Below are positions 1,228 through 63,681 of a DNA stretch of 64,000 nucleotides, one piece after another; position 1 is the first letter of the stretch; every line of letters starts with the position of its first letter. The position numbers and the translations under genes are program-made. The notes beneath the pieces were generated by a model. The model saw nothing but the letters and a program-made list of their open reading frames with translations. It was not told the origin of the DNA and did no database searches. The stretch is from positions 1,763 to 65,762 of the forward strand of contig CAYMYS010000001.1 in NCBI GenBank assembly GCA_964394725.1. Reading direction: 5' to 3'. The stretch is from an uncultured Syntrophaceae bacterium. Lineage in GTDB: Bacteria; Desulfobacterota; Syntrophia; Syntrophales; UBA2210.

Positions 1228-2697
1228 ATGGCTGATCTCAAAGCGCTCATAAAACAGGGTGAAGGCATTGCCGTTGAATTCAAGGAATGCCGGCGCACCC
1301 TGAGCCGGGATGTGTATGAGACCGTCTGCGCCTTCCTCAACCGTCACGGCGGAAACCTGCTGCTTGGGATAAGTGACGCCGGTACAGTGACTGGGGTTGA
1401 CCCCGACTGCGTGGAGCAGATTAAGCGAGACTTTGTAACGGCTATCAATAATCCGCAAAAGATCGATCCGGCTTATTATCTATCCGTTGATGAAATCCAT
1501 ATTGACGGGAAAGCCGTACTTCGCATTTTTGTTCCGGAGAGCTCTCAGGTACACCACTGTAACGGACGCATCTTCGACAGGAATGAAGACGGGGATTTGG
1601 ATATTACAGACCATACCATGCAGGTCGCCAGCCTTTATCATCGCAAGCAGACCACCTACTCAGAGAATAAGGTGTATCCCCATGTCGGGCTAAACGACTT
1701 GCGAACCGATTTAATCGCTCGCTGTCGTAAATTGGCCGGAGTTTGGACTGACGGTCACCCGTGGTCTCAGATGGACGACCTTGATCTAATCCAAAGCTCC
1801 CAACTCTACCAGACCGATACCGAAACCAAAAAGAGTGGCATTACCCTCGCAGGCATTCTTCTGCTGGGCACCGATCAGCTCATTCTTTCAACAGTACCGC
1901 ATCACCGTACTGATCTGATCTTGCGCAAGGTCAACCTGGACAGTTACGATGACCGGGACCTGGTCCGAACCAACCTGATCGAGAGTTATGATCGAATTAT
2001 TGCCTTTGTACAAAAACACCTGCCTGATCCGTTTTTCCTGGAGGGCATTGATCGCATCAGTATCCGCGACGCAATCTTTCGCGAAGTAGCCTCTAACATC
2101 CTGATCCACCGGGAATATACCAATGCTTTTCCAGCCAAACTGATCATCGAATACGGAAAGGTTCGTACCGAGAACAGCAACAAACCACACGGCTTCGGGG
2201 TTCTCAATCCGACCACATTTACGCCGTTCCCCAAAAACCCGGTGATCGGCGCTTTTTTCCGAGAGATTCACCGCGCTGACGAGTTAGGCTCCGGCATGCG
2301 AAAGTTGATGAAATACGGCAAAGCCTATGGTGGACATGATCCCCAGATGGTCGAAGGAGATGTGTTTCGGATCGTTATTCAGGTGCCGGAATTTGGTGCG
2401 ATAGCACCTCAACGCGTCCCCTTGAAGCCAGCGTCAGGGGCCCAGTCAGGAGCCCAGTCAGGGGCCCAGTCAGAAACAATTCTTCAGGCTCTTGAGGAAC
2501 GTCCCCTTTCAGCAAATGAACTGACTAAAACTCTGGAGTTGAAAAGCAAAACGGGAGCCTTTAAGCGCATGATCAAAGAGTTGTTGGACAGGAAGCTTAT
2601 TGAATACACCATTCCCGATAAACCCAACAGCCGTCTCCAGCAGTACCGACTGACTGATGCAGGGCGGGCGATAGTGAAGGATAAAGGCGGAAAGTGA
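1228..2697 (+). CDS. AlbA_2/Schlafen-type DNA-binding protein with HATPase_c_4-like core and C-terminal winged HTH (family often annotated 'RecG-like' regulator)
   Basis: N-terminus 'GEGIAVEFKECRR..LNRHGGNLLLGISDAGTVTGV'. Centre 'REVASNILIHREY..ADELGSGMRKLMKYG'. C-terminus 'LSANELTKTLELKSKTGAFKRMIKELLDRKLIEY'. The stop overlaps the next gene's start (GTGA). Confidence 0.75.
   Translation: MADLKALIKQGEGIAVEFKECRRTLSRDVYETVCAFLNRHGGNLLLGISDAGTVTGVDPDCVEQIKRDFVTAINNPQKIDPAYYLSVDEIHIDGKAVLRIFVPESSQVHHCNGRIFDRNEDGDLDITDHTMQVASLYHRKQTTYSENKVYPHVGLNDLRTDLIARCRKLAGVWTDGHPWSQMDDLDLIQSSQLYQTDTETKKSGITLAGILLLGTDQLILSTVPHHRTDLILRKVNLDSYDDRDLVRTNLIESYDRIIAFVQKHLPDPFFLEGIDRISIRDAIFREVASNILIHREYTNAFPAKLIIEYGKVRTENSNKPHGFGVLNPTTFTPFPKNPVIGAFFREIHRADELGSGMRKLMKYGKAYGGHDPQMVEGDVFRIVIQVPEFGAIAPQRVPLKPASGAQSGAQSGAQSETILQALEERPLSANELTKTLELKSKTGAFKRMIKELLDRKLIEYTIPDKPNSRLQQYRLTDAGRAIVKDKGGK
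2434..2472 (+). repeat. In-frame 12-nt tandem repeat (about 3.25 units) encoding (GAQS)3 linker
   Basis: tcaggggcccag / tcaggagcccag / tcaggggcccag / tca, read directly. It lies between the ATPase-like core and the wHTH of the 1228..2697 ORF. Confidence 0.9.
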
Positions 2698-3413
2698 AAG
2701 GATTAACAAGGGTGGTTATCAAACAGAGAAAAAAATCAAAAGGTATCGTTTCTTGGCCCAAGACAGAGCGCCCACGTGAAAAATTGCTCCATTCAGGTCC
2801 AGAGCCGCTATCGGATGGAGAGTTGATGGCGGTTTTACTGCGGATTGGGAAAGCGGGACAATCGGCTGAGGATTTGGGGCGGCACCTGTTGGCAACGTTT
2901 AAGGGCATCAGCGGGATTGATCGCGCCCACATTGAAGAATTGATGACTGTTCCGGGTATGGGCATCGCCAAGACTGCCCAGCTAAAGGCTGCTATCGAAA
3001 TCGGCAAAAGAGTAAGGATGCAAAACGCACAGCCAAAGAGTTTCAATGATGCGGCGGATGTGGCCACCTATATCCGGCCACGTTTTGAAGGCAAGCGCCA
3101 GGAATCCTTTTTATCAATCCTCCTGGACGGCCAGAACCGTTTGATTGCGGAAAGGGTTATTACTGAAGGCATCCCGACGCAAGCCACGGTCTATGTTCGA
3201 CGGGTGATGGAAGAAGCCTTGCGGGTATCGGCAAGCGCTTTCATAGTAGCCCACAACCATCCTTCAGGCCACCCTGCCCCCTCGCCCGCAGATGACCAGA
3301 CTACACAAGACCTCAAACAAGCCGCCGTTCTTTTGAATTTGGTATTTCAGGACCACATCATCATCGGCAGTGGGAATAATTATTACAGTTATGCTGAAAA
3401 CGACAAATTATGA
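2694..3413 (+). CDS. radC: RadC-like JAB/MPN domain protein (UPF0758)
   Basis: 'ERPREKLL' N-terminal box, HhH-like 'LMTVPGMGIAKTAQLKAAIEIGKR', and JAB motif 'VAHNHPSGHPAPSPADD'. GTG start overlaps the upstream stop. Confidence 0.85.
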   Translation: MKGLTRVVIKQRKKSKGIVSWPKTERPREKLLHSGPEPLSDGELMAVLLRIGKAGQSAEDLGRHLLATFKGISGIDRAHIEELMTVPGMGIAKTAQLKAAIEIGKRVRMQNAQPKSFNDAADVATYIRPRFEGKRQESFLSILLDGQNRLIAERVITEGIPTQATVYVRRVMEEALRVSASAFIVAHNHPSGHPAPSPADDQTTQDLKQAAVLLNLVFQDHIIIGSGNNYYSYAENDKL

Positions 3414-3432
3414 ACAAGGTTGGGAGTGATAC

Positions 3433-5655
3433 ATGCCAAAAAAGAGCTATGTCAAGGCAGATGAAATTCAAATAAAAGGCAATAAAATCTTCAGCCCGGT
3501 GCGACAAAAATGGCTGCCGCTGACCCCGGAAGAGCGGGTTCGGCAAGCATATCTAACTGTTTTGATAGAAGAATATGGGTATAGCATCGATCAAATATCC
3601 GAGGAGGTGGATGTCTCGGGACGTGGAAGCGCTCAGTCACGGGCCGATTTTGTCATATGGCGCAGTGTTCAGGATAAGATCGATCAAAAAGCGCCGTTTA
3701 TTATCGTGGAGTGCAAATCCGATAATGTGACCATCAAGACCCAGGATTATGCCCAGGGCGAACATTATGCGCGGATGACCGACGCGCCTTTTTTTGTCAC
3801 CCACAACTCGCGGGAAACCAAGTACTGGCGGGTCAAAAAAGACCGGATGCCGGGCTATATCGAAGAGATCGAGAACATCCCTCATGCCGATGCCACGGAC
3901 AAGGAAGTTAAAGAATTATTCTCCAAGCTCAGGGTTTTTAAAGAAAAAGAGTTCGCCGACCTGCTGCACCAATGCCATAACGTGATCCGTAACCGTGAAA
4001 AAAAAGACCCGGCGGCAGCTTTTGATGAAATCGCAAAAATTCTTTTTGTCAAAGTCTACGTGGAGCGAAAGCTGCTCACTCGCCGCAGCAAGGAAAACCT
4101 CTTTACCGTGGATGTGCTCAATCGGCAGATTGCTGAAAATCCCCTGGACACCCTGTTTCAGGAAACCAGGAAATCCTATTCCATGGATAAAATTTTTGAC
4201 GATGACGAACGTATCAACTTAAAACCAGCCACGGGCGAAGAAATTGTGCGTAAGCTGGAGAAATACAATCTCTCCGATACCAGCGAGGACATTAAGGGAG
4301 TGGCCTTTGAGCGTTTTTTAGGACGAACCTTTAGGGGGGATATTGGTCAATTTTTCACCCCTCGAACCATCGTGGAATTCATGGTCCACATGATCGACCC
4401 CCATGAAGGTGAGGTGGTCTGCGATCCGGCCAGCGGGTCCGGCGGATTCCTGATTCGCGTGTTCGAGATCGTGCGGGAAAAAATCCTAGCCGATGCCGAC
4501 AAGCAGTACAACGCCTATCGCACGAAAGTAGAAAAGGAGCAACCCCTGACCAATACCAAACGGGCCAAACTGCTTCAGGAAAAATATGATGAGATCCAGC
4601 AGACCATCGATCAAACCAACGAGGGCTCGCGCCTCTGGAATTTGGCCAACCGCTGCATCTTCGGCACGGACGCCAACGACCGCATGGCTCGCACCAGCAA
4701 AATGAACATGATCATGCACGGCGATGGCCACGGCGGGGTCCACCACCATGATGGATTCTTGAACGTCAACGGTATCTTTGAAACCCGCTTTGATATCGTC
4801 ATGACCAATCCCCCCTTTGGCGCCAATGTGGAACCCTCGGACAAGGTGCTGGAATCCGATATCGAAGTCACCGCTACGGACGAACGTCGCTATGTGCGTG
4901 AATTCGGGGAGCCTTACAAAGAAGCCCAGGCGCGGGTGAAGGCCGCCATAAACCGGCCTATCGCCAGCCTCTTTGACCTGCCCAAGAGTGAAAAATCTAA
5001 AATAAAAACCGAAATCCTGTTTATCGAGCGTTGCCTGGATCTGCTCAAACCCGGAGGCCGCATGGGCATCGTTCTCCCTGAAGGGGTTTATAACAACCCT
5101 TCCCTGACCTATGTGCGTCAATTCGTCGAAGACCGGGCCTATCTCAAGGCTGTTGTCAGCCTTCCGCAGGAGACGTTTATCTCATCCGGCGCCAGCGTCA
5201 AAGCCTCGCTGCTTTTTCTCCAGAAATATAGCGATGAGGAAAAAGTGCAGTTCGATCAGATTGATGCAACAGCCAAAGCGGAGATTGCAGCCAAATATGC
5301 TGATGAGATCGCGACTGAAACCCGGCGGCTTGAAGATGCGATTGGAGTAGCAAAAGAAAACAAAGATACCGAGAGCCGAAAAACGCTTCAAAAGGAGCTG
5401 AAAGATTACATCAAGCAGATGGAGGAAAAAAAGGCCGCCGAATCCCGGCAGCTTTTAAAAGAGCGCTTTGATTACCCCATTTTTATGTATGAGGCGGAAA
5501 AAGTCGGTATATCCGCCACAGGTGAAGAAGATCAAAATGAACTCTATCCCAATGATAACAAGCCGGAAGGGATCGAAAAGACATGCTTAGAGTGGTATCG
5601 GGAGTTTTTGTTAGACCCCACGGCATTTGTTGAGGCGGGAGGGGCGGAAGAATGA
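3433..5655 (+). CDS. N6-adenine DNA methyltransferase (gamma-class, HsdM-like) fused to an N-terminal HsdR_N-type PD-(D/E)xK nuclease-like domain
   Basis: 740 aa. N-terminus 'RADFVIW...PFIIVECKSDN' gives a D...ExK pattern. AdoMet motif 'VCDPASGSGGFLI'. Catalytic motif 'VMTNPPFGAN'. C-terminal coiled-coil-like K/E-rich segment. Confidence 0.8.
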   Translation: MPKKSYVKADEIQIKGNKIFSPVRQKWLPLTPEERVRQAYLTVLIEEYGYSIDQISEEVDVSGRGSAQSRADFVIWRSVQDKIDQKAPFIIVECKSDNVTIKTQDYAQGEHYARMTDAPFFVTHNSRETKYWRVKKDRMPGYIEEIENIPHADATDKEVKELFSKLRVFKEKEFADLLHQCHNVIRNREKKDPAAAFDEIAKILFVKVYVERKLLTRRSKENLFTVDVLNRQIAENPLDTLFQETRKSYSMDKIFDDDERINLKPATGEEIVRKLEKYNLSDTSEDIKGVAFERFLGRTFRGDIGQFFTPRTIVEFMVHMIDPHEGEVVCDPASGSGGFLIRVFEIVREKILADADKQYNAYRTKVEKEQPLTNTKRAKLLQEKYDEIQQTIDQTNEGSRLWNLANRCIFGTDANDRMARTSKMNMIMHGDGHGGVHHHDGFLNVNGIFETRFDIVMTNPPFGANVEPSDKVLESDIEVTATDERRYVREFGEPYKEAQARVKAAINRPIASLFDLPKSEKSKIKTEILFIERCLDLLKPGGRMGIVLPEGVYNNPSLTYVRQFVEDRAYLKAVVSLPQETFISSGASVKASLLFLQKYSDEEKVQFDQIDATAKAEIAAKYADEIATETRRLEDAIGVAKENKDTESRKTLQKELKDYIKQMEEKKAAESRQLLKERFDYPIFMYEAEKVGISATGEEDQNELYPNDNKPEGIEKTCLEWYREFLLDPTAFVEAGGAEE

Positions 5656-7049
5656 GTGCCGCTGTGATTTCCAAGAGGCCAATTTGTCTATATTGGTCCG
5701 AAGTTGAGAAATGGACACCCACTTTAAGTCTTCTAAGGTTTGGTAAGCTTCCTGATGAATGGCAACTGCTGCCTGTTTATAAGTTCGCGACTCAGATTGA
5801 CAGCAAAGAGCGAGTTGCGCCTAATACCGAATATCAGATGGCCGGAGTCAAGTGGTATGGTGAGGGGGTTTTTCATCGGGAAACAGTTTTGGGCAAAGAA
5901 CAAAGTGCAAACTACCTTCATTCGTTAAAGCCTGGTTGCATCATTTACAACCGGCTCTTCGCATGGAAGGAATCTTTTGCTGTGGTTCCTGAAAATTTTG
6001 TCGGTTTTTACGTTTCCAATGAATTCCCTCAATTTGAGCTAAACAATTCTGTTGCACTGACCGAGTATATTTATTTGCTCTTTACCTCCAAGAAGGTCAT
6101 TAAGGCTGTCAATGCCGCATCGATAGGTTCGGCAGCTATAAGCAGAAACCGTTTTAAAGAATCTGATTTTTTTGGCTTCAAGGTTCCCATCCCGCCGTTG
6201 GCCGTTCAGCGAAAGATTGTGGCGTATTGGAGATCGGCCAAGCAGAGAATTGAAGCTCAGTTTTATAGGATCAGCAAAGCAGAAAGCGAAATCTCCAAGG
6301 AAATATTGGCCTCTGCAGCTGTTCAAATAAATCCAGGTGAACGATTGCCAAAAATTATGGCTAAACGTTTTAAAAAACTCGATAGATGGGGTGTCGAATT
6401 TAATCGGTATTCTTGGACTCTTGGCAACCTAATAATCGGATCAAGTTATGCTTGCAAACAGTTATCGGATTTCGCTTGGGTGAATCCTTCCACTGAAATA
6501 AATCTGGACCTTTCAGATGAGGTCTCTTTCATCCCAATGGAATCTGTTGACGGTAAAGAAGGAAGAATAACTGCGCCGCAAGAAAGAAAGGTTAAGCGGG
6601 TCAATTCAGGGTATACACGCTTCCAGGAAGGGGATATTCTGTGGGCAAAAATTACTCCTTGTATGCAGAATGGCAAATCTGCCATCGCAAATAATCTGAT
6701 AAATGGAATAGGTTTTGGTTCAACAGAGTTCCACGTCATAAGAAGCAAAAATACATCAATAATAAAAAACGAGTTCATTCATTTAATACTTCGGTTAACG
6801 GAAGTCCGCAAGGCAGCCATGCGCTATTTCGTAGGTTCTGCGGGACAGCAACGAGTTCCAAAAGATTTTCTCGAAGGTTTATATATCCCCATTCCACCAC
6901 TGCAGGTTCAATTAGATATTTTGGATAAAGTCGGCATAGAAAAATTTAATATCGAAAAAGAGCGAAGTGATATGCGTCAAGAAAGAATTTCTTTAGAAAA
7001 GGATATGGAACAAATAATTCTCGGCCTCCGCCCCGTGGAGGAAATTTGA
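5652..7049 (+). CDS. hsdS: Restriction-modification specificity subunit (HsdS-type, two target-recognition domains)
   Basis: 465 aa. Duplicated conserved spacer helices 'FKVPIPPLAVQRKIVAYW' and 'LYIPIPPLQVQLDILDKV'. ATGA start/stop overlap with the methyltransferase gene. Confidence 0.8.
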   Translation: MSAAVISKRPICLYWSEVEKWTPTLSLLRFGKLPDEWQLLPVYKFATQIDSKERVAPNTEYQMAGVKWYGEGVFHRETVLGKEQSANYLHSLKPGCIIYNRLFAWKESFAVVPENFVGFYVSNEFPQFELNNSVALTEYIYLLFTSKKVIKAVNAASIGSAAISRNRFKESDFFGFKVPIPPLAVQRKIVAYWRSAKQRIEAQFYRISKAESEISKEILASAAVQINPGERLPKIMAKRFKKLDRWGVEFNRYSWTLGNLIIGSSYACKQLSDFAWVNPSTEINLDLSDEVSFIPMESVDGKEGRITAPQERKVKRVNSGYTRFQEGDILWAKITPCMQNGKSAIANNLINGIGFGSTEFHVIRSKNTSIIKNEFIHLILRLTEVRKAAMRYFVGSAGQQRVPKDFLEGLYIPIPPLQVQLDILDKVGIEKFNIEKERSDMRQERISLEKDMEQIILGLRPVEEI

Positions 7050-7179
7050 GATGCCCACTGCAAGTCAACCTATTAAATTAGAAGGCTAATTTGCCGCATC
7101 GACCGGGCAAGGGGTTTCGTGGAGGCGGCAACGTTGTCTTAAAACAGGGTTCTCGAAATAAGCAACCAGGATTTAACCA

Positions 7180-9087
7180 ATGCCGAAAAAGAAAAGACCA
7201 CTGGATCGGTTTTCCGATCTGACTTGGAACGATATTGAAGAATGGGCCGACGGAAAAATTGCCTCCCGGGGCAGAAGCTATCAACGGCAGGGACGTGTTT
7301 CCGATCTGGCCGTGACAGACGACGGTAGCCTGATTGCCTGGGTCGATGGAACGGAACGCTATGCCACCAGAGTGGTCTTGGATGAAGACGGCCTGCCGGA
7401 TTCGATCTGCACCTGTCCTTATGAATTCGACTGCAAACACGGCGTGGCCGTGGTGATGGAATACCTTGAGCGGGTCGAAAACAACGGGCCCCTTCCTAAA
7501 GTCAAAGAGGATGACGAGCGCCTGGAACTGTTGGAAGACGATGATTGGGATGATGAAGGATCTGATGATGAAAACGCTATACCCGAGGATATTAGACAGG
7601 ATATCGACGATTTTCTAAAGGGAAAGACCAAAGATCAACTCATCGAACTGATCCATGATCTTGCCGAACAGTATCCTGAGATGGCAAGAGAACTATCCGA
7701 CCGCAAGCAGCTTATTTCCGGGAATACACAAATGCTGGTGACACGCCTTCGTAAAGAGATCAATGACATCGGCAGTGAACCCGGCTGGCGGAACCACTGG
7801 AATGATGATGGATACACACCGGACTATTCGGGAATTCGAAAAAAGCTTGAAACACTGCTCAAGTCGGGGCACGCCGACGAGGTGCTGACTCTGGGCCGGG
7901 AGCTTGTGTCTACCGGCACCCGCCAGGTGGAGGAAAGCCACGATGAGGGCGAAACGGGCATGGAGATTGCCGTCTGCATGCCGGTGATCGTCGAGGCATT
8001 GGATAAGTCCTCTCTTGACAGCGCCGACAGACTGGACTGGGCGCTGGACGCAGTGTTGAAAGATCAGTTCGAGGTGTGCGAAGCCTTTGCAGAATATCTT
8101 CACCGGCGGCAATCCAAAACAGCCTGGGACGTATTGGCTGATCGTCTGCTTACTCGCTTGAAGGGTCTGAAACCCGCCGGAGGGACCGACGATTTCAGCC
8201 TCAACTACGAACGTGACCAACTCAGTAACTGGGCCATCCATGCCCTGGAACAATCGGAACGTGATAAGGAGATTATTCCATTATGTGAAACTGAAACGGC
8301 AAAGACGGTCAGTTACGACCGCCTGGTCCGGCTTTTAATGGATGACAAGCGCTATGAAGATGCCGAGCACTGGATTCAGGAGGGAATTCAGGCCACGAAA
8401 GAAAGGTGGCCCGGCATCGCCGCAAGCCTGCGCGACAAATTGCGTGAAATTCGTACCTTTGAAAAGAACTGGCCTGCGGTGGCGGCGATGTGGATCGAAG
8501 ACTTCGTGCAACGTCCTTCGCAACGGACTTTCACAGAATGCAGGAAAGCCTGCGGCAAAGCCAAGGTCTGGCCGAAGGTGCGCGAATATCTGTTGCGATA
8601 CCTCGAAAAAGGCGAACTGCCCTGGAAGCAGAAGGACTGGTCCCTTCCGGAAACCGGCCAGAACGTGACGGGAAGGGAACGAAAAGACCAATTCCCTCTG
8701 GTGGGTGACCTGATTGACATCGCCATTTTGGAGAAAAAACCGGAGCAGGTGCTGCACTGGTACGATCGACGGCCAAAACAACAATTTGGTTGGTATGGCA
8801 TTGACGAAGATAAGATTGCATCGGCAGTCCGGGAACACGCGCCGGATAGAGCAGTGGAAATATGGAAACACAAAGCGGAAGGGCTGATCGCCCAGGTCAA
8901 GCCCAAGGCCTACCGGGAAGCGGCACAATACCTTCGCAAAGCGGGAGACGTCATGTCAAAGCAGAATAAACAGCCACAGTGGGACCAGTACCTGCGGGAT
9001 TTGAGGGAAGCGCATGCCCGGAAACGCAGCCTGATGGAAACATTGGATGGTCTGGTTGGAAAACCTATTGTGAATAAAAAACGCTGA
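7180..9087 (+). CDS. SWIM zinc-finger protein with acidic linker and long alpha-helical C-terminal region
   Basis: 'CTCPYEFDCKHGVAVVMEYL' matches the SWIM CxC..CxH signature. Acidic run 'LELLEDDDWDDEGSDDEN'. The remaining ~500 aa have a helical-repeat-like composition. Confidence 0.7.
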   Translation: MPKKKRPLDRFSDLTWNDIEEWADGKIASRGRSYQRQGRVSDLAVTDDGSLIAWVDGTERYATRVVLDEDGLPDSICTCPYEFDCKHGVAVVMEYLERVENNGPLPKVKEDDERLELLEDDDWDDEGSDDENAIPEDIRQDIDDFLKGKTKDQLIELIHDLAEQYPEMARELSDRKQLISGNTQMLVTRLRKEINDIGSEPGWRNHWNDDGYTPDYSGIRKKLETLLKSGHADEVLTLGRELVSTGTRQVEESHDEGETGMEIAVCMPVIVEALDKSSLDSADRLDWALDAVLKDQFEVCEAFAEYLHRRQSKTAWDVLADRLLTRLKGLKPAGGTDDFSLNYERDQLSNWAIHALEQSERDKEIIPLCETETAKTVSYDRLVRLLMDDKRYEDAEHWIQEGIQATKERWPGIAASLRDKLREIRTFEKNWPAVAAMWIEDFVQRPSQRTFTECRKACGKAKVWPKVREYLLRYLEKGELPWKQKDWSLPETGQNVTGRERKDQFPLVGDLIDIAILEKKPEQVLHWYDRRPKQQFGWYGIDEDKIASAVREHAPDRAVEIWKHKAEGLIAQVKPKAYREAAQYLRKAGDVMSKQNKQPQWDQYLRDLREAHARKRSLMETLDGLVGKPIVNKKR

Positions 9088-9219: not shown

Positions 9220-9266
9220 ATTGAAGCTCCCCGCAACAAGTTGCGGGGAATCTCCGACTATTTCAG
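9220..9266 (+). repeat. Composite palindromic intergenic element, copy c1
   Basis: ATTGAAGCTCCCCGCAACAAGTTGCGGGGAATCTCCGACTATTTCAG. The core hairpin is CCCCGCAA/TTGCGGGG. The distal TTTCAG contains the lpdA TGA (9263-9265, minus strand). Confidence 0.85.
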
Positions 9267-10642
9267 ACGTGAATCGCCTCTCCCACAGCTGCCAGGACGG
9301 CCTCTTTCACCGTCTCACACAATGTGGGGTGAGGATGGATGGTCTCCTTCACCTCTTCCACTGTCATGCCCGCCTTCACCATGGTTACCGCCTCGCCCAG
9401 GAGGTCGGTGGCATGGGGTCCAAACATGTGAACGCCCAGGATTCTGTGTGTTTTTTTATCTACTACTGTCTTTACGAAGCCGCTCGTCTCCTCCATGGCA
9501 TGGGCCATGGCGTTTGTTTTAAAGGTGGCCTTTCCCTCCAGGATTTCCAAACCCCTCTCGACGGCCTCGGCAGCCTTTAGACCGACGCTGGCAATTTCTG
9601 GATCTGTATAGATGAAACCCGGTACTGCGTCATAGTTCATTGAAGATGTGTGTCCCATGATATTTTCCACGGCCACGATCCCCTGTTCACTTGCCACGTG
9701 GGCAAGGAGAAATTTGCCCGTCACATCTCCGACGGCGTAGATATTCGCTATGTTCGTCTCCATACGGTCATTCACGACAATCCCCTGGGGTGCGTATTCA
9801 AGGCCCATCTCTTCAAGCCCCAGCTCTTCCGTGTTCAACCGTCGGCCCATTGCCAGAAGACAATAATCGGCGGTTATGGTCTCCCCTTCCATCTTTATAT
9901 CGACGGATCCCTGGGGATAGTTTCGTTCCAGCGCCTTCACCGCCGTCTTTGTCATGACCGTGACGCCTTGTCGTTTCAAGCGCCCCTCCAGCCGTCGGGC
10001 GATTTCCCTGTCCTCTGTGGGGACGATACTGTCGAGCATTTCGATGAGATGGACTCGTGACCCGAGCTGACTGAAGAGACAGGCAAACTCACACCCCGAA
10101 ACGGAACCGCCGATGACGGCAATACTTTTGGGAAGGTGATCAAGATCGAGGGCCTCCGTCGTCGTTATAATCCGGTCTCCATCATATGTGATAAATCCCG
10201 GAACAAGGGGCCGCGACCCCGTTGCAATGACGATGGAATCGGCCGATTCACTTACACATTGCCCGTCCCTGCCACGGATCTCCACCGTAGTAGAATCGAG
10301 AATACGCCCCCTCCCCTTGATGAGGGATATCCTGTTTTTTTTGAAGAGCCCATAGATGCCGGCAACATTGTTGCGCACGACGGTATTCTTCTTTTCCACC
10401 ATTTTATCGAAACGGAGGTCATCAGTTGTACAATATACACCATATTGTCGGCAATTCTGTGTGGTTTGATAGACGCGCGCGGCGTGGAGCAGCGTCTTGG
10501 TAGGGACACATCCCCAGTTGAGGCACGTCCCCCCCAGTTCTTCCTCTTCGACAACAGAGACCTGCGCTCCCAGTTGGGCGGCCCTGATTGCGGCGACATA
10601 CCCGCCCGGTCCGCCGCCGATGATAACTATTTTTTTGGCCAT
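9263..10642 (-). CDS. lpdA: Dihydrolipoyl dehydrogenase (E3)
   Basis: 'IIGGGPGGYVAAIRAAQLG' FAD fold and redox-active 'CLNWGCVPTK'. 459 aa. Confidence 0.92.
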   Translation of the reverse strand: MAKKIVIIGGGPGGYVAAIRAAQLGAQVSVVEEEELGGTCLNWGCVPTKTLLHAARVYQTTQNCRQYGVYCTTDDLRFDKMVEKKNTVVRNNVAGIYGLFKKNRISLIKGRGRILDSTTVEIRGRDGQCVSESADSIVIATGSRPLVPGFITYDGDRIITTTEALDLDHLPKSIAVIGGSVSGCEFACLFSQLGSRVHLIEMLDSIVPTEDREIARRLEGRLKRQGVTVMTKTAVKALERNYPQGSVDIKMEGETITADYCLLAMGRRLNTEELGLEEMGLEYAPQGIVVNDRMETNIANIYAVGDVTGKFLLAHVASEQGIVAVENIMGHTSSMNYDAVPGFIYTDPEIASVGLKAAEAVERGLEILEGKATFKTNAMAHAMEETSGFVKTVVDKKTHRILGVHMFGPHATDLLGEAVTMVKAGMTVEEVKETIHPHPTLCETVKEAVLAAVGEAIHV

Positions 10643-10663
10643 TCTGTCTTGCTCCTCGATTAT

Positions 10664-10713
10664 ATTGAAGTTCCCCGCAACAAGTTGCGGGGAATTCGCT
10701 CACTGTTCAGTTC
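10664..10713 (+). repeat. Composite palindromic intergenic element, copy c2 (between E2 and E3 genes)
   Basis: ATTGAAGTTCCCCGCAACAAGTTGCGGGGAATTCGCTCACTGTTCAGTTC. The first 32 nt are 31/32 identical to c1. Confidence 0.9.
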
Positions 10714-10720
10714 CTCTAGA

Positions 10721-12949: not shown

Positions 12950-13933
12950 TTACTCGTTAATAACGCTTTGCAAAAACTCATCGACAGAGGGTTCTGGACT
13001 GCTTTTGGCGAACGCGACTGCCTCTTCCAGTTCACCGTCGATCTGTTCTTCAATCTTCTTGATCTTGGCCTCGTCCTGTATCTTGCCCTGCAAGACAATC
13101 ATGGGATCTCGCTCTTTCCACTGCTTGAGCAATTCCTGATCCATATAGAGACCGGGATCATTCACGTGGTGTCCACCGTGGCGATAGGTGTTTGCCTCTA
13201 TCAGAGTCGGACCCTCTCCCTTTCGCGCCCGTTCGGCAGCCTCTTTTGTCGCATTATATACGGCGACGGCATCGTTTCCATCTACGCAGACCCCCGGTAT
13301 GCCATAGGCAGGCCCACGGCCCGCAAGGTTGCAGTCTCCCGAGGAAAATTCCACCTTTGTGCCGACGGCATAATGATTGTTCTCCAACATAAAGATAACG
13401 GGAAGTTTGTAAATCGATGCCAGGTTGATTGATTCGGCGAAGACACCATTATTCGATGCCCCGTCACTGAAGAAAGTAACCACCACCTGACTGGTGCCCC
13501 TTATCTTGATTCCCATTCCCGCACCCGTACCGATGGGAATGCCTCCCCCAACAATACCATTGGCGCCCAGGTTATTGTCCTCCTTGCACGAAATGTGCAT
13601 CGAACCACCGCGGCCCTTGCAGAGACCTGTTTCCCTGCCCATTATCTCGGCTATCATCAGTTTCAGATCTGTGCCCTTGCTGACACAGTGACCATGGCCC
13701 CGGTGGGTGCTGATGATATAATCATCTGCATTAATGGCAGTACAGGCCCCGGCGGCGATCGCCTCTTCGCCGAGGTAGGGATGGAGAAACCCCCGAATCA
13801 ATCCCTGGCGATAGAGATCTATACAGGTCAATTCAAAGCGACGTGTAGCGTAAATCTTCTTATACATCTCCAGCAGTGTCTTTTCTGCGACAACTGGCAA
13901 CTTATCTTTCTTGGCTGGTTCTTTTTTTACCAT
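12950..13933 (-). CDS. TPP-dependent dehydrogenase E1 component, alpha subunit
   Basis: TPP motif 'FFSDGASNNGVF...LENNHYA'. Start moved from 14002 to the ATG at 13933 (MVKKEP...), which follows AGGAG at about 8 nt. Confidence 0.85.
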   Translation of the reverse strand: MVKKEPAKKDKLPVVAEKTLLEMYKKIYATRRFELTCIDLYRQGLIRGFLHPYLGEEAIAAGACTAINADDYIISTHRGHGHCVSKGTDLKLMIAEIMGRETGLCKGRGGSMHISCKEDNNLGANGIVGGGIPIGTGAGMGIKIRGTSQVVVTFFSDGASNNGVFAESINLASIYKLPVIFMLENNHYAVGTKVEFSSGDCNLAGRGPAYGIPGVCVDGNDAVAVYNATKEAAERARKGEGPTLIEANTYRHGGHHVNDPGLYMDQELLKQWKERDPMIVLQGKIQDEAKIKKIEEQIDGELEEAVAFAKSSPEPSVDEFLQSVINE

Positions 13934-20381: not shown

Positions 20382-20428
20382 ATTGAAGCTCCCCGCAGCA
20401 AGGTGCGGGATATGCTCTCGCTCTTCCC
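20382..20428 (+). repeat. Composite palindromic intergenic element, copy c3 (divergent promoter region / tkt leader)
   Basis: ATTGAAGCTCCCCGCAGCAAGGTGCGGGATATGCTCTCGCTCTTCCC. The stem is shortened to CCCGCA/TGCGGG. Confidence 0.7.
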
Positions 20429-20499
20429 TTTAAAAAAAACTTTTTCTGAGAGTGTTTTTTTGTTAAGGTACGATGAATTTAAATGCTGATGAGGTATCT

Positions 20500-25436: not shown

Positions 25437-25478
25437 ATTGAAACTCCCCGCAGCCGTGCAGACCCATGAGTGGGGAGT
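25437..25478 (+). repeat. Degenerate copy (c4) of the composite palindromic element
   Basis: ATTGAAACTCCCCGCAGC matches the 5' half of the family. The 3' half is replaced, and ACTCCCC/GGGGAGT pair across a 22-nt loop. It sits at the end of pseudogene fragment A. Confidence 0.4.
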
Positions 25479-25775
25479 CGTACTCGACTGCATCCCCGAT
25501 GAAGAGCTTGAAGGCAGAACGGCAAGCTGCTGGCCTTTTCACCCCTGGCACAGCGGACCATGAAGGAAGTCCTCAATGCGGCTCAGGACAAGCAGTTAAG
25601 TGTTTATAATCGCTTAAGATCATTTTGGTCTCAGGGCCAGCACCCATATCATCGGTTCTGTCCAACCATGCTTTTCGGCGACCTGAGAGACGATGAAGCA
25701 TCTCGATAGATCGGCATTTACAATTTTTGCCAATCCTGGCATTTTTTGTAAATGGAAGGATAAGGCGTCACCCAT
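25478..25775 (-). pseudogene. Decayed fragment A of a DNA-methyltransferase-like gene (paralogue of 27167..27535)
   Basis: A 51-codon ORF (25620..25775) gives 'MGDALSFHLQKMPGLAKIVNADLSRCFIVSQVAEKHGWTEPMIWVLALRPK*'. After stops and a frameshift, the downstream sequence still reads 'PGVKRPAACRSAFKLFIGDAVEYD'. Confidence 0.5.
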
Positions 25776-27166: not shown

Positions 27167-27535
27167 TTAAACGCAAAGCACGTTCTGCACAAACGTCCCC
27201 CCATATCGCGGGATGTGAAAAATAGTAAAGAATGTGCGCATCATTTGGGCGGAGATAGGTCCCGGCCAATCATGGCCGAAAGGCCGGACGCAGTCATTCC
27301 AATCTCACAGGTCCCATGTCCTCAATCACCAGCTAAGTTATTTAATTTGTTTAATATCATCTTTGTCTTCCAGGACCAGTACCCATACCATCGGCTCTGT
27401 CCAGCCATGCTTTTCAGCAACCTGAGAGACTGTGAAGCCTCTCCATAAATCGACATTTGGCGGATTTGGCAGTGTTGCCATTTCCGCCAAATGGTCGGAT
27501 AAAGTCCTCTGCACCGAATGATTGAGCCGGTTCAA
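27167..27535 (-). pseudogene. Decayed fragment B of a DNA-methyltransferase-like gene (N-terminal region, three in-frame stops)
   Basis: A single frame reads '...VSQVAEKHGWTEPMVWVLVLEDKDDIKQIK*LSW*LRTWDL*DWNDCVRPFGHDWPGPISAQMMRTFFTIF...'. The pattern W.LRTWDLW..C..FG.DWPG.I..Q matches, from memory, the N-terminal conserved block of a family of N4/N6 DNA methyltransferases. Confidence 0.6.
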
Positions 27536-27565: not shown

Positions 27566-28471
27566 CTATCGGCGCCAGGCTTCCAGCTGCGACACTTCTG
27601 CCCGCAACCGCGTTACTGTTTCAGGGGAGTTAAAGAGTTTCCGGCAGAGCTCGCATTTGGTATAGGTTATTATCTCGCGGGCCTTCATACCGGTAAAGGA
27701 TGCAATATTTGTTATCCCCATGGTTCTGATGCAGTTGTACAACCGGTCTGTTTCAGTTTTAGTAAAAAGCTCTTCCATTGAATTGTCCTTCAGGTTCCCA
27801 AGATAAAAAAATCTTGTTTCCTGGAAATGGCTCCCTGCATCGCAACAGGCATACATATCAAGATCGGGTGTGAGATAGGGGTTCATGTCGCAGCAGTTTG
27901 CCTGATAATCGGTGAGAATATTCCTTCGCTTGAAAGACTCCGCACGACCTGCGTATATGATGGGTTCGGGAAAAAATACGAGGCAGTGATCTCGCAAAAA
28001 CTGCTCATAGGGATCATCATTGATGGAAAAATCGGTAACAAAGGACACAAAATAATCTAACCCGATCTTCCGGCAGCTCTGTGCCGCATTCAATACGTTG
28101 TTCCGGTTTATATTTTTCTGGTGCCACCGTGAGTAACTCAATCTCAATTGGCAAAGGCCCTTTTCCTTCAATTCTGTAACAAGGCTTAGGGAAGCCTCTG
28201 CCGTCTCTGCCCAGAAACTATTGGTAACAATCCTCGTATATATTCCCAGTTGTCTGCACAGTTTCACAAGCTCTGCGATTTCATTGAAATAGAGAAGGGG
28301 TTCACCGGCGGAAAAACTTATGCCACCGACACCTGCCTGGGCTATCTCGACAATGATTTCTTTTGCCCTGTCATGATCCATTTTCCGGCTATCAGGAATA
28401 TCTCCCGAAGCCACGCAGTGCTCGCACCTGATATTGCATCTCGTTGAGTACCCAAAGGCTAATTTTCGCAT
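27566..28471 (-). CDS. Radical SAM protein with Cys-rich (SPASM/twitch-like) C-terminal region
   Basis: 'CNIRCEHC' (CxxxCxxC), 'SFSAGEPLL', and C-terminal 'CCDMNP...MYACCDAGSHF' and 'CELC'. Confidence 0.75.
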   Translation of the reverse strand: MRKLAFGYSTRCNIRCEHCVASGDIPDSRKMDHDRAKEIIVEIAQAGVGGISFSAGEPLLYFNEIAELVKLCRQLGIYTRIVTNSFWAETAEASLSLVTELKEKGLCQLRLSYSRWHQKNINRNNVLNAAQSCRKIGLDYFVSFVTDFSINDDPYEQFLRDHCLVFFPEPIIYAGRAESFKRRNILTDYQANCCDMNPYLTPDLDMYACCDAGSHFQETRFFYLGNLKDNSMEELFTKTETDRLYNCIRTMGITNIASFTGMKAREIITYTKCELCRKLFNSPETVTRLRAEVSQLEAWRR

Positions 28472-33789: not shown

Positions 33790-35178
<1,389 letters not shown>

Positions 35179-41265: not shown

Positions 41266-41307
41266 ATTGAAGCCCCCGCAACAAGGTGCGGGGAATGGCT
41301 CTTCAGT
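41266..41307 (+). repeat. Composite palindromic intergenic element, copy c6 (between convergent radA and dut)
   Basis: ATTGAAGCCCCCGCAACAAGGTGCGGGGAATGGCTCTTCAGT. It ends 1 nt before the dut TGA (41308-10). Confidence 0.85.
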
Positions 41308-41754
41308 TCAACCGGTGTGACCGAAACCGCCGGAAGCACGTTCCGTCTCATCCAAATCCTCTTCCAGGTTCCAAGAAACCCGGCAGACGCGATTAATGAC
41401 CATCTGCGCGATACGATCACCCCTTTGTATTGTAAAGGGTTCACTGCCATGATTGATCAATATAACCTTCACCTCTCCACGGTAGTCACTGTCGATGGTT
41501 CCTGGAGAGTTGAGCAGCGCAACACCATGCTTGATTGCAAGGCCGCTCCTCGGTCTGATCTGGGCTTCACATCCCTCAGGCAGCTCTAAGACAATTCCGG
41601 CCGGGACCAGTACCCTTTCGCCAGGCAGAATGGTCTTTTCCCCGATCACGGCGGCAAAGATATCCATACCTGACGAACCGTCTGTCATATAGCGCGGAAG
41701 GGATATATCAGTATTACCGGGTAGCCTTTTAATGGATACCTTGATCTCTTCCAA
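41308..41754 (-). CDS. dut: dUTP diphosphatase
   Basis: 148 aa. 'GTIDSDYRGEV' and 'RIAQMV'. Confidence 0.92.
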   Translation of the reverse strand: MEEIKVSIKRLPGNTDISLPRYMTDGSSGMDIFAAVIGEKTILPGERVLVPAGIVLELPEGCEAQIRPRSGLAIKHGVALLNSPGTIDSDYRGEVKVILINHGSEPFTIQRGDRIAQMVINRVCRVSWNLEEDLDETERASGGFGHTG

Positions 41755-63622: not shown

Positions 63623-63664
63623 CCCCGCACCATGGTGCGGGGGATGCGATCGCTGTTTCAGTTC
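63623..63664 (+). repeat. Variant copy (c7) of the composite palindromic element, lacking the ATTGAAG box
   Basis: CCCCGCACCATGGTGCGGGGGATGCGATCGCTGTTTCAGTTC. The first 20 nt form a perfect palindrome, and the 3' arm GCTGTTTCAGTTC matches c2. Confidence 0.6.
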
Positions 63665-63681
63665 GCAGTAAGGATTCAGTG

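Follow-up and report, generated by a model that had tools for sequence, protein, structure and literature searches.

Extragenic hairpin repeats have been studied at length in a few Gammaproteobacteria, and their movement is only partly understood. REP palindromes usually form families specific to one species or genus, while Correia elements have long terminal inverted repeats and a TA duplication, and BOX elements are built of boxA-B-C units; each of the Correia, BOX, and ERIC elements is confined to a single genus. REP palindromes carry a GTAG or CGTC tag beside the stem (PMC3733652), and REPINs and BIMEs consist of two REPs in inverted orientation (PMC3337134). The insertion sequence IS608 is cleaved 3′ of TTAC, 19 nt 5′ of its left hairpin, and at TCAA, 10 nt 3′ of its right hairpin; guide bases are found on the 5′ side of each hairpin foot, and insertion produces no duplication (PMC3201880).

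The 64,000-nt stretch of Syntrophaceae DNA analysed here (the window) contains six clear copies and one relic of a hairpin repeat, all co-oriented and far beyond chance (Table 1). The string CCCCGC-N8-GCGGGG, with at most one mismatch, occurs five times against 0.13 expected, a count of five or more being reached in none of 100 shuffles, and the 16-nt 5′ box, with up to three mismatches, occurs eight times against 0.88 expected. A repeat finder places the six copies in a single family and aligns the cores of c1 and c2, originally described as near-identical, at 97% over 32 nt. The covariance model suggested in the original prediction, when built solely from copies of other genomes, retrieves c1, c5, c2, c3, c6, and c7 and places them all on one strand. 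The hairpin of c7 alone scores almost equally on both strands (19.0 versus 18.3 bits), and hence the orientation of this copy rests on its tail. In c4, which was also listed as a copy, the 5′ box and half stem match at 15 of 16 positions, but the model does not find it at E up to 10 and it is reclassed as a truncated relic. The source contigs beyond the window (2 kb upstream, 9 kb downstream) hold no further clear copy.

Table 1. Copies of the element in the window. The sequences of the six copies with an entry under "Original reading" were confirmed as written; scores are those of the covariance model.
Copy	Position	Strand	Original reading	Form	Context	Score (bits)
c1	9220..9265	-	9220-9266	Plus-strand reading A-TTGAAGCT, hairpin 1 (9229-9248), AAT, linker-type CTCCGACTATT, TCA; no GCTCGCT tail	TCA 9263-9265 = lpdA stop codon on the complementary strand (lpdA by ORF and Pfam match)	47.7
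c2	10664..10714	-	10664-10713	Short form; inserted DNA is 10667-10710 plus one of two flanking TT pairs	E2-E3 intercistronic spacer	
c3	20382..20431	-	20382-20428	Short form; decayed tail GCTCTCGCTCTTCCCTTTA; G.G mismatch at stem top	Between SDR and transketolase genes, in their divergent promoter region	25.9
c4	25437..25478	-		Relic; 5′ box and first half-stem ATTGAAACTCCCCGCAGC kept, remainder diverged; repeat family D3		
c5	33790..33882	-	33790-33883	Expanded, diverged copy	purA-rsfS spacer; TCA 33880-33882 = purA stop codon on the complementary strand	38.6
c6	41266..41310	-	41266-41307	Short form	Between convergent radA and dut; TCA 41308-41310 = dut stop codon on the complementary strand	
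c7	63623..63665	-	63623-63664	Hairpin with C-G top pair and CATG loop; tail GATGCGATCGCTGTTTCAGTTC; no 5′ box	Begins 10 nt past the pdf stop codon	

The family to which these copies belong is real and widespread, being present in at least five bacterial phyla. A strict 23-base pattern has at least 119 genomic matches, spread over MAGs from several phyla and the complete genome of Ca. Manganitrophus, a large and dispersed family of the kind that had been expected from the window. Most matches lie in MAGs of Syntrophales/Desulfobacterales type; further ones come from Nitrospirota (Ca. Manganitrophus), Fibrobacterota, and Nitrospinota. Three Manganitrophus plasmids carry one copy each, and a Leptolyngbya plasmid has the hairpin and tail. 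The 20–30 nt hairpin core is near-identical across Thermodesulfobacteriota, Nitrospirota, Fibrobacterota, Nitrospinota, and a cyanobacterium, which implies a conserved protein partner. Searches of the literature by sequence string and by keyword found no published description of the family.

In MAGs, the full element measures 114–118 nt (about 117 nt) and comprises a 5′ box, hairpin 1, a linker with a small hairpin, hairpin 2, and a tail. On the folded strand, which is the minus strand of the window, it reads TGAA^CTGAACAGCGAGCGC-ATT-hairpin 2-TTAGCGAGCGAAT-(A/T-rich linker)-CC-TTAACAGTC-GGAG-ATT-hairpin 1-AGCTTCAA^T, with ^ at either end of the element. Hairpins 1 and 2 are direct repeats, and hairpins are flanked in all aligned copies by GAAGCT and AAT on the plus strand or by ATT and AGCTTCAA on the minus strand. 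Sizes fall into discrete classes (50–51, about 80, and 114–118 nt, plus longer forms with nested modules); the shorter forms retain one hairpin and the same two ends, and the window copies are short or partial derivatives of the ~117-nt element. The architecture originally drawn for the repeat needs correction for c1, in which the linker-type CTCCGACTATT takes the place of the GCTCGCT tail. The ends of the element do repeat in inverted orientation, but the proposed terminal repeats ATTGAAG/CTTCAGT reduce to TTGAA/TTCAA, the terminal TTCA being at least partly target, and the strand on which the repeat was written is the complement of the folded one.

The hairpins are maintained by compensatory changes, and they fold best in the minus orientation. 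The search pattern leaves two stem positions unconstrained; these are occupied by G-C in 67 copies, A-T in 44, C-G in 2, and G-T in 2, with 10 mismatched (n = 125). In the minus orientation, 97.3% of cells pair and the covariation score is 0.191, a level that none of 500 shuffles attains (0.104 when shuffled); the paired change originally described for c7, and the selection on structure for which it was taken to argue, belong to this general pattern. On the strand originally read, non-Watson–Crick stem positions comprise 44 A.C against 5 G.T, and thus the wobble pairs lie on the other strand. Counted as distinct variants, the asymmetry is about 13 versus 3, and it could partly stem from a few ancestral variants copied many times. 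As RNA, the minus strand folds at -45.4 kcal/mol (z -3.8) versus -37.9 (z -1.9) for the plus strand, and a tandem G.A helix is possible within the element. A loop in the linker (P) covaries with the end of the element (P′) through at least nine distinct complementary pairs (score 0.387 versus 0.118 shuffled, 0 of 500 as high); P pairs with the element's first bases.

Comparison with relatives shows that copies have been gained at new sites in single lineages, including recent insertions beside housekeeping genes. Where two relatives with 91% and 89% identical LpdA read AGG^AATATAATCG, the window has a clean 46-nt insertion (c2), and the covariance model finds no copy at that spacer in either relative. 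The dut-radA spacer of three relatives (L127, L128, L129) lacks c6, with the dut TGA stop codon already there. From the purA-rsfS spacer of the latter two c5 is missing, and that of L127 holds an independent full-length copy in the opposite orientation. Because the same spacers in close relatives lack copies, c2, c5, and c6 are insertions, and the presence/absence comparison at orthologous spacers that had been proposed therefore yields three window copies absent in relatives. For c1, the regions downstream of lpdA in relatives L122 and L123 are without a copy, and elsewhere a filled locus (L030) is matched by an empty one (L095) whose site reads ATTCA. Over 68 kb of syntenic DNA, relatives have one copy versus four in the window lineage. 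Single-hairpin forms without P are among the recent insertions (c2, c6, L030).

These filled and empty sites point to insertion at TGAA^T-like sequences. A TGAA/GGAA target is seen at three sites; c2 carries TTCC, in agreement with its own empty site GGAAT, and a T lies 3′ of the insertion point in 98 of 125 cases. With such a target, the element is often placed immediately upon a TGA stop codon, and for c6 this TGA is the pre-existing stop codon of dut. Of 85 elements, nine have an end that coincides with a convergent stop codon, and a further 17 end within 30 nt of one. The description of every copy as intergenic accordingly needs amendment, since the terminal TCA of c1, c5, and c6 overlaps the TGA stop codons of lpdA, purA, and dut. 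Along the folded strand, the empty sites place one end of the element 18 nt away on the 5′ side of hairpin 2 and the other 8 nt away on the 3′ side of hairpin 1. Both clean empty sites leave a 2-nt AA/TT ambiguity, TT/AA flanking the filled sites on both sides and occurring once in the empty sites, and hence a 2-bp target duplication fits as well as element-borne bases.

Exactly two ambiguous bases at both clean sites would be expected of a conventional MITE, that is, a deletion derivative of a double-strand cut-and-paste insertion sequence (using a DDE transposase or an IS607-kind serine recombinase) with TTGAA/TTCAA ends, a 2-bp TT/AA duplication, and an ATTCA target. The 2-bp duplications of bacterial insertion sequences are, however, typically TA and not TT, and whereas classical MITEs have terminal inverted repeats of at least about 10 bp, only TTGAA/TTCAA is shared here. 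Such 5-nt inverted-repeat ends, the perfectly palindromic 36-nt forms found at two loci (L014 and L046), and size classes and nesting usual among MITEs all suit this explanation; the unequal arms beside the hairpin (18 nt versus 8 nt), the covariation of the internal loop with one end only, and the lack of a parent insertion sequence with such ends adjoining the 119 copies do not. Neither compensatory stem changes nor a one-strand wobble asymmetry is predicted by recognition of double-stranded inverted repeats, and we regard a MITE origin of this kind as distinctly unlikely.

The precision of the insertions also bears on the proposal that a conserved DNA-binding or nucleoid protein of the host uses the element as a binding-site module, which would be spread by recombination without a dedicated transposase. 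BIMEs bind IHF and gyrase, and a near-identical 20–30 nt core across phyla, strictly conserved single-stranded GCGAGCG boxes, and an A/T-rich linker could all be explained in this way. Lineage-specific insertions at a defined target nevertheless require a site-specific insertion activity, and the covariation reflects selection on pairing and not on double-stranded sequence, so that this proposal appears very improbable.

The uniform polarity of the copies holds within the window but is no rule of the family, for in other genomes true copies of opposite orientation lie a few kb apart. The folded strand coincides with the G-rich strand at 92 of 125 loci (37:18 after gene-strand correction, p = 0.014), which is the direction predicted for an IS200/IS605-type element, whose active strand lies on the lagging-strand template; co-directional (-,-) loci split 9:11 after the same correction, and the GC-skew bias largely follows the gene strand. 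Given this split, the dependence of skew on genes, and the closely spaced opposite copies, any coupling to replication is weak at best, and strict coupling of orientation to replication was rejected.

At 73 of 109 loci, the upstream neighbouring gene has its sense sequence on the folded strand, and among copies with co-directional flanks the proportion is 42 versus 14. An RNA role, in which stable CUUG-loop hairpins and the loop-to-5′-end pairing would shield or process the upstream transcript at its 3′ end or set relative expression within operons—mobility serving only to spread the module—would account for this bias, although TGA targeting by the insertion machinery can itself produce it. 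Between a quarter and a third of copies are wrongly oriented for such a role or lie in divergent promoter regions, and the independent purA-rsfS copy of the relative is inverted. Many copies do begin at or near a stop codon and c2 lies between E2 and E3 inside an operon, while G.U-type wobbles, the possible tandem G.A helix, and the fold z-score of -3.8 are all suited to RNA. Known RNA families were rejected, as none matched: in Rfam, the only match in the window at gathering score is a tRNA, and a search of five loci carrying full-length copies, at E up to 1, produced no relevant match. Intrinsic terminators, raised at the outset as a conserved feature that might explain the copies, were likewise rejected; the hairpins are followed by AAT... 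or AGCTTCAAT with no U tract, and no copy was called terminator-like on either strand. On balance, we consider a primary role in RNA credible but unlikely. A shared RNA or protein-binding module, the second option of the original prediction, is a candidate reading.

No mobilising gene was found with the copies. As originally stated for the window, no gene explains the family, there being no transposase in the window or beside the 119 other copies. Neighbouring proteins (747) clustered only into families common in the hosts (CRP/FNR regulators, sigma-54 activators, and CoA ligases among them), and no gene family is enriched near copies. Within 1.03 Mb of window and loci, tblastn, phmmer, and HMM searches with IS200, IS608, and RAYT queries found no Y1-like ORF, and the suggested check for RAYT or IS200-IS605 tnpA was thus negative over that DNA. 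Two weak tblastn matches to Y1 were rejected because they lie inside ordinary host ORFs. Autonomous, cargo-carrying copies were also rejected; where unrelated DNA follows hairpin 1, the next ORFs are host genes. The gene between the inverted pair of copies at L052 is mobA-like.

Other origins were considered and dismissed. A cyanobacterial HIP1 context was rejected, as GCGATCGC is not enriched, and so was a phage origin, since phage records gave no match and viral contigs one match in 2.9 million. Derivation from a CRISPR repeat, as solitary or mini-array repeats, is hardly credible. The hairpin TTCCCCGC...GCGGGGA presumably resembles the stem of a type I-E repeat, the distance from stem to element end is 8 nt, and the full form has two hairpins in direct orientation; however, arrays are absent, each locus has one element, the sequence between the hairpins is conserved and not variable, no cas genes were seen near copies, and a single match among 2.9 million viral contigs is again all that was found. 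A CRISPR-like array was rejected on the same grounds of one element per locus and conserved inter-hairpin sequence.

Of the described systems, the REP/BIME and REPIN-RAYT repeats of Enterobacteria and Pseudomonas share with the family many extragenic copies of short GC-rich imperfect palindromes, frequently located right after stop codons (seven in 64 kb here, and at least 17 strict matches in one related MAG). Both occur as mosaics with defined linkers, both are gene-less and presumably moved in trans, and both display compensatory stem changes and a strand-defining G.T asymmetry. In contrast to REPs, all aligned copies here are without the GTAG/CGTC tag, the hairpins are direct where those of REPINs and BIMEs are inverted, single-hairpin forms have inserted recently, no RAYT was found in 1.03 Mb, the core is common to several phyla, and there is a defined target (TGAA^T) together with an internal loop-to-end pairing.

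The likeness to the IS200/IS605 elements (IS608, ISDra2) and their gene-less derivatives lies in a subterminal hairpin at each end, with asymmetric hairpin–end distances of 18/8 nt here versus 19/10 nt in IS608. As in IS608, the right end finishes with TCAA, the target is of tetranucleotide type and on the same strand, and conserved bases occur just 5′ of each hairpin foot, the position of the guide bases of IS608. Unlike those elements, the family has no associated tnpA or tnpB, its one-hairpin forms are mobile, insertion favours a T at the following position, a 2-nt duplication, which IS200/IS605 elements do not make, is possible, and orientation follows GC skew only loosely; moreover, the guide-like loop P near the right-end hairpin pairs across to the left end. 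IS608-type targeting gives no account of the preferred T. Correia/NEMIS (Neisseria), BOX (pneumococcus), and ERIC elements are similar in their size of 50–150 nt, in long and short forms distinguished by internal modules, and in lying near genes, co-transcribed and with strong secondary structure, but differ from the family in that its end repeats are 5 nt and its conserved unit is an internal hairpin found across phyla.

The explanation that we favour, and to which we give about an even chance, is that the family consists of small, non-autonomous, mosaic mobile elements moved in trans as single-stranded DNA by a hairpin-recognising HUH/Y1 enzyme. Dispersal, mosaic forms, empty sites, covariation, and the lack of a linked transposase support the original suggestion of a REP/BIME- or MITE-like non-autonomous element. 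Under the favoured explanation, the element would move as single-stranded DNA, cut and pasted in trans by an IS200/IS605-type or RAYT-type enzyme whose gene would lie elsewhere in the genome. This enzyme would bind the ATT-hairpin unit and cut on its upstream side after TGAA, at a distance of about 18 nt, and on its downstream side after TCAA, at 8 nt, a geometry near that of IS608. Pairing of P with P′ may loop out the extra modules, thereby allowing long and short forms to offer the same ends. If excised element circles are formed, their junction is predicted to read ...GAGCTTCAA^CTGAACAGCGAG... Consequences for adjacent genes, for example through a stable hairpin at the 3′ end of the mRNA, would be secondary.

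A bolder form of the HUH/Y1 explanation, which we advance tentatively and with limited confidence, is that of a new class of hairpin-guided mobile element with an unrecognised partner enzyme, long-lived in at least five phyla, homing to TGA stop codons (TGAA^T) and using an internal loop paired with its own end to set the cut. If this were true, the one-hairpin forms of 45–50 nt would be among the smallest mobile DNAs in bacteria. The family provides a clean non-model case, with recent insertions and matching empty sites, and it offers a target that overlaps stop codons together with discrete long and short forms; the covarying loop-to-end pairing predicts a mode of end recognition. For annotation, the element accounts for many conserved intergenic hairpins in MAGs of bacteria from anaerobic sediment and groundwater, and its presence flags remodelled stop codons and 3′ UTRs.

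The original prediction placed seven copies of the hairpin element in the window, and all seven were confirmed in sequence at their positions (see the table). The motif CCCCGC-N8-GCGGGG, with at most one mismatch, occurs five times in the window against 0.13 expected (0 of 100 shuffles reached five), and the 16-nt 5′ box occurs eight times against 0.88. A repeat finder assigned six copies to one family, with c1 and c2 97% identical over 32 nt. A covariance model trained solely on copies from other genomes, window copies being excluded, recovered c1, c5, c2, c3, c6, and c7, all on a single strand. The model missed c4, which agrees at 15 of 16 positions with the 5′ box plus half stem and is therefore counted as a relic. 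No Rfam family corresponds to the element, and a literature search yielded no paper printing its sequence or describing such a family in these taxa.

Coordinates of element copies and of other features (window positions unless a locus from another genome is named)
Feature	Position	Strand	Description
c1	9220-9265	-	hairpin-1-plus-linker fragment
c2	10664-10714	-	~50-nt form, hairpin 1 and tail
c3	20382-20431	-	
c4	25437-25478	-	
c5	33790-33882	-	
c6	41266-41310	-	~50-nt form, hairpin 1 and tail
c7	63623-63665	-	~50-nt form, hairpin 1 and tail
HIP1 octamer	63646-63653		GCGATCGC, in c7 tail
Gene run	1228-9087	+	Schlafen AlbA_2/Fic-like, RadC, N6-methylase with HSDR_N domain, specificity subunit, 635-aa protein (weak SWIM zinc-finger match)
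Small ORF	25620-25775	-	51 aa
Small ORF	27338-27535	-	65 aa
Radical-SAM gene	27566-28471		
L127 (syntenic relative)	13105-13225		full-length copy, 121 nt, purA-rsfS spacer, opposite to c5
L131 (AP017311.1)	2996-3120		Leptolyngbya sp. NIES-3755 plasmid3 element
L057	~6600		nested module
L014	5156 (oriented)		36-nt minimal form
L046	224 (oriented)		36-nt minimal form

The commonest form is 114–118 nt long and reads, on the window plus strand, (A)TTGAAGCT-[CCCCGCA(A/G)CAAG(T/C)TGCGGGG]-AAT-CTYC-x-P-..AAGG-(A/T-rich)-, followed after the A/T-rich linker by TCGCTCGCT-AA-[CCCCGCYGCAAGCRGCGGGG]-AAT-GCGCTCGCT-..-P'-TCA, in which P denotes a loop and P' the end. A ~50-nt class comprises hairpin 1 and the tail, a ~80-nt class is without hairpin 2, and in longer forms the linker or a loop contains additional, nested hairpin modules; from these size classes, fragments, and nested modules, the family is therefore mosaic, like BIMEs. 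Nested modules were seen at the loci L057, L076, L118, and L014/L105, one being a 24-nt insert in the hairpin 2 loop and others CCTGCCCGCCTGTCAATC...GGCGGACAGG hairpins in place of the linker, which suggests a second small repeat family inserting into the first. The two minimal forms are perfect palindromes without a tail, TTGAAGCTCCCCGCAGC-AA-GCTGCGGGGAGCTTCAA. The HIP1 octamer in c7 is no mark of a cyanobacterial genome, since the window holds just two such sites.

Selection on hairpin structure, for which the prediction had argued, is borne out: stem pairs covary (0.191 against 0.104 shuffled, 0 of 500 as high), and the two free stem positions are paired in 115 of 125 pattern matches, with three Watson–Crick types. 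Within the alignment that gave this score, of 41 full-length copies taken as the complement of the orientation first described, 97.3% of cells pair, against 33%–59% when partner columns are slid. Non-Watson–Crick positions in 157 hairpins read on the plus strand comprise 44 A.C and 5 G.T (~13:3 by distinct variants), and the A.C excess therefore represents G.T/G.U wobbles on the other strand. The consensus RNA fold reaches −45.4 kcal/mol (z −3.8) in the complementary orientation and −37.9 (z −1.9) in the plus orientation, and DNA parameters give the same trend; RNAalifold further proposes that hairpin 2 is enclosed by pairing between the two GCGAGCG boxes, including a tandem G.A. Pairing, wobble, and fold data thus identify the folded strand as the window minus strand, with CTTG/CUUG loops. 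A rival explanation holds that the element's role is mainly at the RNA level.

On the folded strand, the 4–5 bases after the starting TGA complement those of a loop lying ~8 nt upstream of hairpin 1, and P and P' vary in concert between lineages. The plus-strand pairs are ACTG/CAGT, ATTG/CAAT, ACCG/CGGT, ACAT/ATGT, ATCCC/GGGAT, AAATG/CATTT, AAATT/AATTT, ATTCT/AGAAT, and ACCGTAA/TTACGGT; a Manganitrophus copy (L071) is read as ACCCG/CGGGT, and in one lineage the register is shifted (ATGCA/TGCAT). When both segments were aligned without gaps (n = 35 sequences), four core pairs held in 27–29 of 35, the three variable pairs showing three pair types each, and the covariation score was 0.387 against 0.118 shuffled (0 of 500 as high) and at most 0.237 for slid versions.

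The window was compared with syntenic DNA of relatives whose LpdA or SerA is 89%–91% identical. At c2, which lies between the 2-oxoacid dehydrogenase genes E2 and E3, the relatives' spacer reads AGG^AATATAATCG and the window has exactly 46 bases more. Three relatives hold no copy in the dut-radA spacer, the site of c6, and all three keep the TGA stop codon. Two lack the element in the purA-rsfS spacer, the site of c5, and L127 bears an opposite copy there; this spacer has hence been struck by independent insertion. Across 68 kb of syntenic DNA, relatives hold one copy against four in the window lineage. A further empty site (L095, filled in L030) reads ...CATTTC-ATTCA-AAATACC, and both clean filled/empty comparisons leave a TT/AA ambiguity of 2 nt. 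The target on the folded strand is TGAA^T; that of c2 is GGAAT, and accordingly c2 ends TTCC, not TTCA. The terminal TTCA box of the prediction, in which the outer boxes were said to look like inverted repeats, is therefore largely target sequence.

Because the target includes TGA, elements end on or near convergent stop codons: 9 of 85 finish exactly on one and a further 17 lie within 30 nt. The first minus-strand bases of c1, c5, and c6 are the stop codons of lpdA, purA, and dut, respectively. With the plus-strand reading as +, flanking genes are (−,−) in 42 cases, (+,+) in 14, convergent in 18, and divergent in 14. The folded strand is the G-rich strand at 92 of 125 loci, mostly tracking gene strand; with gene strands equalised, the ratio is 37:18 (p = 0.014). 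The uniform polarity noted originally holds within the window but not for the family, as true opposite-orientation copies lie a few kb apart in some genomes; it is thus a bias rather than a rule, and could partly be a product of the TGA in the target.

The host is an uncultivated Syntrophales-type bacterium, and its proteins are also encoded on metagenome contigs from ENA and Logan; its LpdA shares 89% identity with the LpdA of MAG CSMAG_1223, and named homologues of its SerA (~70%–73%) belong to Syntrophales. Genes adjoining copies are housekeeping ones (E1-E2-E3, purA, rsfS, dut, radA, pdf, and transketolase). No copy has the look of an intrinsic terminator. A gene run resembling a restriction/defence island ends shortly before c1. 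Elsewhere, two small paralogous ORFs share the motif VSQVAEKHGWTEPM(I/V)WVL, and their paralogy explains the 132-nt DNA repeat D2; since a radical-SAM gene stands immediately upstream of the second, the two may be precursor peptides of the RiPP type.

A strict pattern of 23 bases, which covers the 5′ box and the hairpin and leaves the two top stem positions free, matched at least 119 places in a collection with one genome per species. By record title, 102 of the matches listed fall in MAGs labelled Thermodesulfobacteriota, Deltaproteobacteria, Syntrophales, Desulfobacterales, Desulfovibrionales, Proteobacteria, or Pseudomonadota; seven in Nitrospirota (four in one complete Ca. Manganitrophus chromosome); seven in Fibrobacterota (contigs up to 353 kb); and one each in Nitrospinota, a Dehalococcoidales bin (possibly a binning error), and an unclassified bacterium. 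Single copies are present on each of three Manganitrophus plasmids. The Leptolyngbya plasmid element has the same hairpin and a related tail (GATT-CCCCGCAGCAAGCTGCGGGG-AATC, then ~95 nt up to terminal GATGTTCA), beside an IS1 remnant and xisH/xisI genes. Phage records gave no match, and 2.9 million viral contigs gave one.

The element is gene-less, structured, target-specific, and recently inserted. As predicted, no transposase is present among the window genes; no gene family is enriched beside copies, no autonomous copy was found among the loci examined, and 1.03 Mb searched with approximate Y1 queries contained no Y1-like ORF. The REP/BIME-like option of the original prediction fits, in that this mosaic, recently inserted element works similarly to REP/BIME and to IS200/IS605-derived gene-less elements; it lacks, however, REP's GTAG or CGTC tag, its hairpins are direct, not inverted, and no RAYT turned up in the 1.03 Mb searched. 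IS608 is cleaved 3′ of a TTAC located 19 nt 5′ of its left hairpin and, on the right, at a TCAA located 10 nt 3′ of the hairpin, with guide bases 5′ of each hairpin foot and no duplication (PMC3201880). On the folded strand of the element, the last base of TGAA is 18 nt 5′ of a hairpin and that of TCAA 8 nt 3′ of one, and ATT precedes both hairpins, comparable in position to the guide bases. Because of this resemblance, the favoured reading is that a candidate HUH/Y1 enzyme, supplied in trans, would move the element as single-stranded DNA, with P/P' pairing returning the distant end to hairpin 1 in long forms. Counting against it are the possible 2-bp duplication, the T preferred after the insertion point, the weak link to replication, and the fact that single-hairpin forms are mobile although they have no such loop. 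Another rival explanation is a MITE of DDE or serine-recombinase origin. The element has no long inverted repeats such as mark classical MITEs. The element is unusual in three traits: a target overlapping a stop codon, a covarying loop-to-end pairing, and a hairpin core that is nearly identical between phyla.
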